From Escherichia phage WPEC6, in the sequence record PV763039.1: a DNA stretch of 64,000 nucleotides. One strand, written 5' to 3'. Positions 26,493 to 26,578 of the stretch are shown here, in pieces. The notes beneath the pieces are model-generated. The model was not told the DNA's origin, did no database searches, and saw nothing but the letters and a program-made list of their open reading frames with translations. Each line of letters begins with the position of its first letter. Positions within the stretch are counted from its first letter, which is position 1. The position numbers were made by a program, and so were the translations under genes.

Positions 26493-26578
26493 GATGAGTT
26501 GGCTGAATGGTTTAAGCGGCGGACTGTTAATCCGTGTTCGAAAGAACGATATAGGTTCAAATCCTATACTCATCGCCA
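26493..26578 (+). tRNA. class-II tRNA with Asn anticodon GTT and discriminator G (isotype-ambiguous)
   Basis: acceptor gatgagt/actcatc, 3-bp D-stem, loop ctGTTaa, 15-nt variable arm (gttc-gaaa-gaac), perfect T-arm, CCA. Confidence 0.65.

Follow-up and report, generated by a model that had tools for sequence, protein, structure and literature searches.

Textbook accounts confine long variable arms in bacteria to the Leu, Ser, Tyr and Sec tRNAs. In Escherichia phage WPEC6 a tRNA gene of 86 nt combines such an arm with the asparagine anticodon GTT, which raises two questions: which amino acid the tRNA carries, and what the arm is for. An earlier note on this DNA had proposed that the tRNA could insert Ser at AAC and AAU codons. 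The window analysed here is the whole 64,000-nt stretch of sequence record PV763039.1, and coordinates refer to it unless another locus is named.

Architecture and genomic setting of the gene

The ARAGORN scan that the earlier note had suggested as a check placed a tRNA-Asn (gtt) on the + strand at 26493-26578 and put its anticodon at position 34. With the Rfam tRNA model (RF00005), whose gathering score is 29, the gene reached 62.0 bits (E about 4e-12), and 12 nt of its variable region formed an insertion relative to the model. The minimum-free-energy (MFE) structure of the full 86-nt gene, 26493-26578 (+), GATGAGTTGGCTGAATGGTTTAAGCGGCGGACTGTTAATCCGTGTTCGAAAGAACGATATAGGTTCAAATCCTATACTCATCGCCA, is a five-helix cloverleaf. 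The gene and its parts are as follows.

26493..26578, + strand: tRNA-Asn(GUU) gene with long variable arm, 86 nt, CCA encoded (ARAGORN, Rfam RF00005, MFE cloverleaf, public annotation)
26493..26499 with 26568-26574, + strand: acceptor stem GATGAGT / ACTCATC, 7/7 pairs, with G1-C72 and A2-U71
26502..26517, + strand: D arm GCTGAATGGTTTAAGC, three Watson-Crick pairs including C11-G24, plus G13.A22
26519..26535, + strand: anticodon arm GCGGA-CTGTTAA-TCCGT, anticodon GTT at 26526-26528
26536..26550, + strand: variable arm GTTC-GAAA-GAAC plus GAT tail, 15 nt (4 bp, GAAA loop, 3-nt tail)
26551..26567, + strand: T arm ATAGG-TTCAAAT-CCTAT (parse, Rfam, homologue alignment)
26575..26578, + strand: discriminator G73 (G at 26575) and encoded CCA

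The description in the earlier note of a class-II architecture with a 3-bp D stem, a 15-nt extra arm and a discriminator G was confirmed by the parse, by Rfam and by the MFE fold. The alternative class-I fold, which that note had named as a possible refutation, is impossible because the gene has 86 nt with five helices; where class-I tRNAs have a variable loop of 4–5 nt, there is a 15-nt region with a 4-bp helix. This hairpin, with its GNRA-type loop, is inserted between positions 45 and 46 and is a genuine class-II shape. The acceptor and T stems have the canonical 7/5 configuration and not the 8/4 or 9/3 configuration of allo-tRNAs and tRNA-Sec-like molecules, and the gene has G73 and GUU in place of the A73 and GUA of tRNA-Tyr. 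The anticodon GUU lies within the 7-nt loop CTGTTAA, flanked by U33 and A37; as had been recognized earlier this is the canonical Asn loop, and G26 (26518) together with the anticodon arm, that is positions 26-43, matches E. coli tRNA-Asn at 100 %.

The gene belongs to a + strand run of Ser(UGA)-like, Ser(GCU), Tyr-like, Asn, tRNA-like RNA and then Thr(UGU) genes. Its principal neighbours are listed here.

26050..26079, + strand: promoter-like site TTGACA-18-TAGATT, TG-extended, upstream of the tRNA run (consensus match)
26183-26268, + strand: tRNA-Ser(GCU), robust call
26583..26668, + strand: tRNA-like RNA, homologue of T5 'rna3', directly 3' of the tRNA-Asn

The promoter-like site is to be read as a consensus match only, because the region is no richer in such sites than shuffled sequence. 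The earlier note had counted two tRNA-Ser genes nearby; that at 26183-26268 (GCT) stands as a robust gene, and that at 26088-26178 (TGA) is doubtful: its D arm is aberrant and ARAGORN does not call it. The same is true of the Tyr(GUA)-like gene at 26399-26487 (+). Rfam gave the Ser(UGA)-like gene 37 bits, with the tRNA-Sec model and below threshold, and the Tyr(GUA)-like gene 39 bits; relatives label these genes as pseudogene, 'tRNA-OTHER' or tRNA-Tyr. The observation that the island lacks a Leu tRNA agrees with ARAGORN, which finds none within the window; the relative phi92 has two tRNA-Leu.

The rna3-like RNA occupies the same spot beside the tRNA-Asn in phi92, AKFV33 and Bas33. In this RNA, stems resembling the acceptor and T stems are present but a normal anticodon loop is absent, its motif TGTAGAGTTAA is invariant and its stems show compensatory changes; the T5 label is putative tRNA-like RNA. 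The class-I tRNA-Thr(UGU) at 26670-26744 (+) has C41 and a U31.U39 mismatch, and the former recalls the A41-to-C change reported to lower cleavage of tRNA-Lys by AriB, the nuclease of the PARIS defence. Further on, a tRNA-like fold at 27474-27548 (+), uncalled by both ARAGORN and Rfam, combines a canonical T arm (GCTGGTTCGAATCCAGC) with an acceptor stem and has no proper D arm (fold z-score −2.9). Directly downstream of the island lie RmlC-like (dTDP-4-dehydrorhamnose 3,5-epimerase) and RmlD-like genes (28443-29845, +), followed by a lysozyme gene and then a PhoH-like gene.

Conservation and distribution of the long-arm form

The window comes from a phAPEC8-like Escherichia phage, the tRNA island of which is 100 % identical to that of phages WPEC4 and WPEC2 and 97–99 % identical to that of many Phapecoctavirus genomes. 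Public records of near-identical phages already label the gene tRNA-Asn, so the gene is not new as such. Matches to the 86-nt gene were found in 715 phage records, 37 of them at ≥99 % identity, and substitutions within the genus were confined to the D loop, the first tail nucleotide and the T loop. Among 14 diverse aligned homologues, compensatory changes were observed at 4/4 pairs of the arm, with 100 % of cells paired, and 99.7 % of cells were paired over the whole cloverleaf. All four standard helices and the arm covary across families, the acceptor stem at all seven of its pairs. The covariation score was 0.765 vs 0.188 in shuffles, with 0/500 shuffles reaching it, and slid controls collapsed. 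A chance match is excluded because of the 37 records at ≥99 %, the loop-only changes and the compensatory arm pairs; in E. coli genomes, a BLAST search with the whole tRNA returned only a chance match, in yobD. Judged from these alignments, the arm is conserved and under selection in several coliphage groups and many uncultivated phages.

Genes of 82–86 nt annotated as tRNA-Asn are present in Justusliebigvirus, Tequintavirus, Epseptimavirus, Novosibvirus, Mydovirus and Seunavirus. Named carriers include phi92 (Justusliebigvirus) and the Tequintavirus or Epseptimavirus phages AKFV33, Bas33 (HildyBeyeler) and Bas26 (GreteKellenberger), and further carriers are a Proteus Novosibvirus, two Vequintavirinae and a 166-kb Klebsiella phage. 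When IMG/VR was searched for the pattern of an Asn anticodon arm with an over-long spacer behind it, at least 120 loci were found, with at least about 77 distinct long-arm tRNA(GTT) sequences of very different bodies among the matches listed. The same pattern occurred at 35 places in 100,044 species genomes, of which about 10 were real long-arm tRNAs; six of these were clustered with other tRNA genes, three of the six in arrays of 22–29. The form is nevertheless a minority among viruses, at 3/104 tRNA(GTT) genes in an unselected IMG/VR sample and 3/46 of those in clusters of five or more tRNAs. Relative to cellular genomes, the excess of long-arm tRNA(GTT) in viruses is more than 100-fold. By these counts the long-arm tRNA-Asn is a recurrent variant nearly confined to phages; a class-II tRNA-Asn is kept in well-studied coliphage groups and is nearly missing from cells. 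No description of a long-arm or class-II tRNA-Asn was found in the literature outside subscription-journal papers, such as those on early T5 and T2 tRNA sequencing, and a review of non-canonical tRNAs and the main phage tRNA and defence papers neither note nor explain one.

Long arms on normally class-I tRNAs appear to be a general phage feature. Such arms were observed on several isoacceptors in five viral contigs and in others. Genes for tRNA-Thr(UGU) of 83–87 nt with a variable-arm hairpin occur in Bas33 (locus L167, 14775-14861) and five further loci. The Bas33 long-arm tRNA-Thr has the AriB motif U36AAUC↓A41 intact, and the T5 tRNA-Thr is class I with position 39 changed. Long-armed Ile(UAU) genes of 91–94 nt, mostly with A73, recur in viral contigs, as do long-armed Trp, Cys, Met, Glu, Gly, Gln, Lys and Pro genes. 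In a cellular setting, an Azoarcus sp. genome (locus L155, 2248-2334) has, beside a normal tRNA-Asn, a copy in which 11 nt of the variable region are tandemly duplicated (ATCCGTAGGTC); this copy is probably defective and represents a different route to an over-long tRNA-Asn.

One reading of this distribution is that the tRNA is charged with Asn and that its arm is unrelated to defence, being a tolerated insertion (for folding stability, precursor processing or escape from modification enzymes) that has spread by cassette exchange. Similar hairpins in Thr, Trp, Cys, Ile, Met and Glu isoacceptors of the same viral loci are consistent with this, as is the fact that most viral tRNA-Asn genes are without the arm. 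The tRNA-Asn and the rna3-like RNA also stand at matching positions in unrelated phage families, which suggests cassette transfer. However, the sustained compensatory evolution of the helix argues for selection and not neutrality, and both the viral excess over cellular genomes and an either/or pattern, in which T5 has position 39 changed and Bas33 has the long arm, count against this reading. We regard it as rather unlikely.

Asparagine or serine identity

The identity set of E. coli asparaginyl-tRNA synthetase (AsnRS) consists of the anticodon and G73 and can be transplanted into tRNA-Lys; G73 is in addition an antideterminant for TyrRS and LeuRS (PMC9976931). The full set, GUU and G73, is present in the WPEC6 gene. 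The earlier note had taken the discriminator G as Ser-type, but G73 is also the Asn discriminator, and E. coli tRNA-Asn ends in ...GAGGA-G-CCA. The bacterial tRNA-Asn hallmark U1-A72, which is needed by GatCAB and not by AsnRS, is replaced by G1-C72.

The descent of the gene was assessed by a MAFFT alignment of the WPEC6, phi92 and SalP219 genes with two class-I tRNA-Asn, one from Kuttervirus Maynard and one from E. coli, the host reference sequence having been verified against 5,425 genomes. A single gap was needed, 10 nt long and exactly at the hairpin. In phi92 the variable region GA[ACGAAAGTTC]TAG corresponds to GATAG in Maynard, and the T stem is common to both. The core of the WPEC6 gene was 79 % identical to that of the Maynard tRNA-Asn, compared with 69 % for the E. 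coli tRNA-Asn and 59 % for the tRNA-Ser beside it in the island. The simple model of a plain class-I core plus a hairpin was upheld in part: the alignment supports the insertion, but the 13-22 pair is predominantly G.A, a trait of true class-II tRNAs (G13.A22 being the commonest state, in 38/78 long-arm Asn genes among the matches listed). The WPEC6 D arm resembles that of some tRNA-Ser, and when the collected tRNAs were ranked by similarity of their D and T arms to those of the WPEC6 gene, Ser, Cys, Thr and Lys all fell at 0.76–0.81, so that the ranking did not tell the isotypes apart. In every related set examined (up to about 23 genes) the long-arm gene is the only GTT tRNA and stands alongside a separate tRNA-Ser. 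The scan of WPEC4 for a second tRNA-Asn covered 93.8 kb outside the tRNA island, in a record that is not colinear with the window.

A different identity has to be weighed, in which host seryl-tRNA synthetase (SerRS) would recognize the long arm, G73 and G1-C72 and attach Ser, either by itself or in rivalry with AsnRS, and some AAC/AAU codons would be read as Ser during infection. The gene has the class-II shape with G13.A22, and agrees with tRNA-Ser in its long arm, its G73 and its C11-G24, a pair that reportedly has a role in Ser identity. The variable region, at 15 nt in total, is as long as that of the phage's own tRNA-Ser(GCU), and T5-like versions of the long-arm tRNA-Asn have both G1-C72 and G2-C71. 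From G1-C72, C11-G24, G73 and the Ser(GCU)-length arm, partial charging by SerRS is therefore conceivable on sequence grounds, the more so as SerRS disregards the anticodon (PMC9976931).

The remaining positions point away from Ser. G2-C71 is described as absolutely conserved in E. coli tRNA-Ser, and C2-G71 is a reported antideterminant for E. coli SerRS (PMC9976931). Of the tRNA-Ser combination G1-C72 and G2-C71 the WPEC6 gene has the first only, its 2-71 pair being A-U, vs G2-C71 in 53/53 co-resident viral tRNA-Ser among the IMG/VR matches listed. Across the wider family of long-arm tRNA(GTT), again among the matches listed, G73 was found in 73/77 and U1-A72 in 48/77, and the commonest 2-71 pair was C2-G71 (35/77). 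The arm differs from that of tRNA-Ser in its 3' tail, which is 3 nt in WPEC6 and 3–4 nt in 63/77 long-arm Asn sequences vs 0–2 nt in 50/53 viral tRNA-Ser (matches listed in both cases) and so lies outside the Ser norm. The 4-bp arm stem falls inside the range of viral tRNA-Ser (4–8 bp, mostly 5–7, in the matches listed), at its short end. The overall arm geometry is Tyr-like, not Ser-like.

Together with the clear homology to class-I tRNA-Asn, the A2-U71 pair and the 3-nt arm tail count against Ser insertion at AAC/AAU. The earlier note is thus partly supported: it had the structure right, and its inference of Ser from that structure is weak because G73 is shared with Asn, the host sequence recurs unchanged at positions 26-43, the gene has homologues among class-I tRNA-Asn, the 2-71 pair and the tail are not those of tRNA-Ser, and the long-arm gene is the sole GTT tRNA in every related set examined, some of them large. 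Asn identity appears much more likely than Ser identity, and charging by SerRS, alone or in competition, is improbable. The specific proposal that the tRNA is a substrate for SerRS as well as AsnRS, giving some Ser at AAC/AAU as phage-programmed statistical mistranslation, is very improbable. If SerRS did charge it, this would be a rare case of virus-driven mistranslation.

The gene is probably a functional phage tRNA-Asn, charged by host AsnRS and decoding AAC/AAU. The window has 38.5 % GC, and AAT and AAC make up 4.9 % of its codons, a measure of the demand for tRNA-Asn. AsnRS is a class-II synthetase, and such enzymes approach the tRNA from the variable-loop side, so the long arm could hinder it. 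If the tRNA is charged by AsnRS, then AsnRS tolerates a long arm, which would be useful for tRNA engineering and for orthogonal tRNA-synthetase pairs.

That the RNA is non-translating, either a decoy or competitive inhibitor that soaks up anticodon nucleases through its host-like anticodon arm or a decaying gene, is highly unlikely: the anticodon arm is indeed 100 % host-like, the same island contains degenerate tRNA-like genes and the PARIS paper raises the idea that overexpressed viral tRNAs may competitively inhibit AriB (PMC12409363), but all stems are intact with CCA encoded and a high Rfam score, the four standard helices and the arm covary across families, changes within the genus are in loops only, and G73 and the acceptor stem are conserved although a pure anticodon-arm decoy would not need them.

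Possible role of the arm and comparison with known tRNAs

For a tRNA-Asn charged by AsnRS, our best guess, put forward tentatively, is that the arm serves as an escape from tRNA-cutting defence nucleases. The tRNA would be transcribed together with the neighbouring tRNAs, probably charged with Asn by the host enzyme reading the GUU anticodon and G73, and would then decode AAC/AAU. The arm would give the phage tRNA a structure different from that of host tRNA-Asn without altering the anticodon arm on which AsnRS depends, and defence nucleases that read the tRNA body, such as AriB, would fail to dock. This shielding is more likely than dual charging by SerRS and AsnRS with mistranslation.

AriB cuts E. 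coli tRNA-Asn(GUU) as one of its secondary targets (PMC12409363), so that the isoacceptor encoded by the WPEC6 gene is one that a defence nuclease attacks in the host. The AriB cleavage motif of the WPEC6 tRNA, U36AAUC↓C41, is identical to the host's, so the cleavage site itself is unchanged, which weighs against evasion. In T5, position 39, which adjoins the AriB cut site, is altered in each of the class-I tRNAs for Asn, Thr and Lys. Bas33 has host-like U36AAUC in its Asn and Thr tRNAs, both of which are long-armed (86 and 87 nt), and is without tRNA-Lys(UUU). When blocked by PARIS, Bas33 is rescued by tRNA-Lys supplied alone (PMC12409363), which is consistent with the long-arm Thr and Asn tRNAs working under AriB attack. 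In the AlphaFold model of the authors of that study, the AriB dimer spans the 3' strand of the anticodon stem and D-loop positions 16-17 (PMC12409363), and going by this model a protruding arm could plausibly interfere with docking. A precedent for the variable region as a resistance determinant is the T5 tRNA-Tyr, which resists retron-Eco7 owing to its distinctive variable loop (PMC13096335). More broadly, variable-arm hairpins may be a general phage shield for Asn, Thr and other tRNAs and an alternative to cleavage-site mutation, a generalization that we hold to be possible but somewhat doubtful. If the arm does block defence tRNases, it would be a second escape route beside cleavage-site mutations and could help to explain differing PARIS sensitivity among T5 relatives.

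Rescue from PARIS toxicity by the T5 tRNA-Asn was considered as functional evidence and dropped; it says nothing direct on the long-arm form because the T5 locus is a 78-nt class-I gene. For that reason the remarks on amber-suppressor conversion in the T5 annotation have no bearing on it either. The T5 gene (locus L160, 6953-7030, − strand) forms 3/5 anticodon-stem pairs (GCATC/GTTGA), that is, its stem is disrupted, and its 5' end is overlapped by ORF T5.069; in relatives the long-arm gene occupies this position.

The following genes lie about 5 kb from the tRNA island and likely constitute a tRNA heal-and-seal repair module (19185-21947).

19185-19589, − strand: AAA_33 kinase-like protein, putative tRNA repair module
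19590-20522, − strand: T4 Rnl1-family RNA ligase, putative tRNA repair module
20524-21075, − strand: calcineurin-like metallophosphoesterase, putative tRNA repair module
21591-21947, − strand: cREC cyclic-phosphate-processing receiver-domain protein, putative tRNA repair module

The presence of this putative module nearby suggests that tRNA cleavage presses on WPEC6.

Compared with the class-I tRNA-Asn of E. coli and Maynard, the WPEC6 tRNA is alike in GUU, U33, A37, G73 and positions 26-43 and aligns end to end bar one gap; it differs in the 10-nt hairpin of the variable loop and a D stem with G13.A22, and the host U1-A72 is G1-C72 in the phage. With bacterial tRNA-Ser it has in common the long arm, G73, G1-C72, C11-G24 and dimensions near those of the phage tRNA-Ser(GCU). 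In contrast to tRNA-Ser it has an Asn anticodon arm, A2-U71, a 3-nt tail and a 4-bp stem, and sequence homology between the two is limited to generic tRNA features. The closest arm geometry is that of bacterial tRNA-Tyr(GUA), with 0–1 nt on the 5' side, a stem of 2–4 bp and a 3-nt 3' tail; the anticodon is one base off, with U36 where tRNA-Tyr has A36, and G73 stands where tRNA-Tyr has A73.

The nuclease-resistant tRNAs of T5 (Lys, Thr and Asn against AriB, Tyr against retron-Eco7) are likewise phage copies of an attacked isoacceptor that differ from the host's. In WPEC6, by contrast, the cleavage site is unchanged and the difference lies in the body, in the arm, and resistance of the tRNA is hypothetical. 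Class-II tRNAs with an anticodon mismatched to their charging are known in the nematode nev-tRNAs and in Candida tRNA-Ser(CAG). The allo-tRNAs also resemble the WPEC6 tRNA in combining a long arm with the anticodon of a normally class-I amino acid (PMC7609411, PMC5389517). All three of these have Ser, Ala or Leu identity elements and are of class-II origin, whereas the WPEC6 gene has the full Asn set, the normal 7/5 geometry and an origin from tRNA-Asn.
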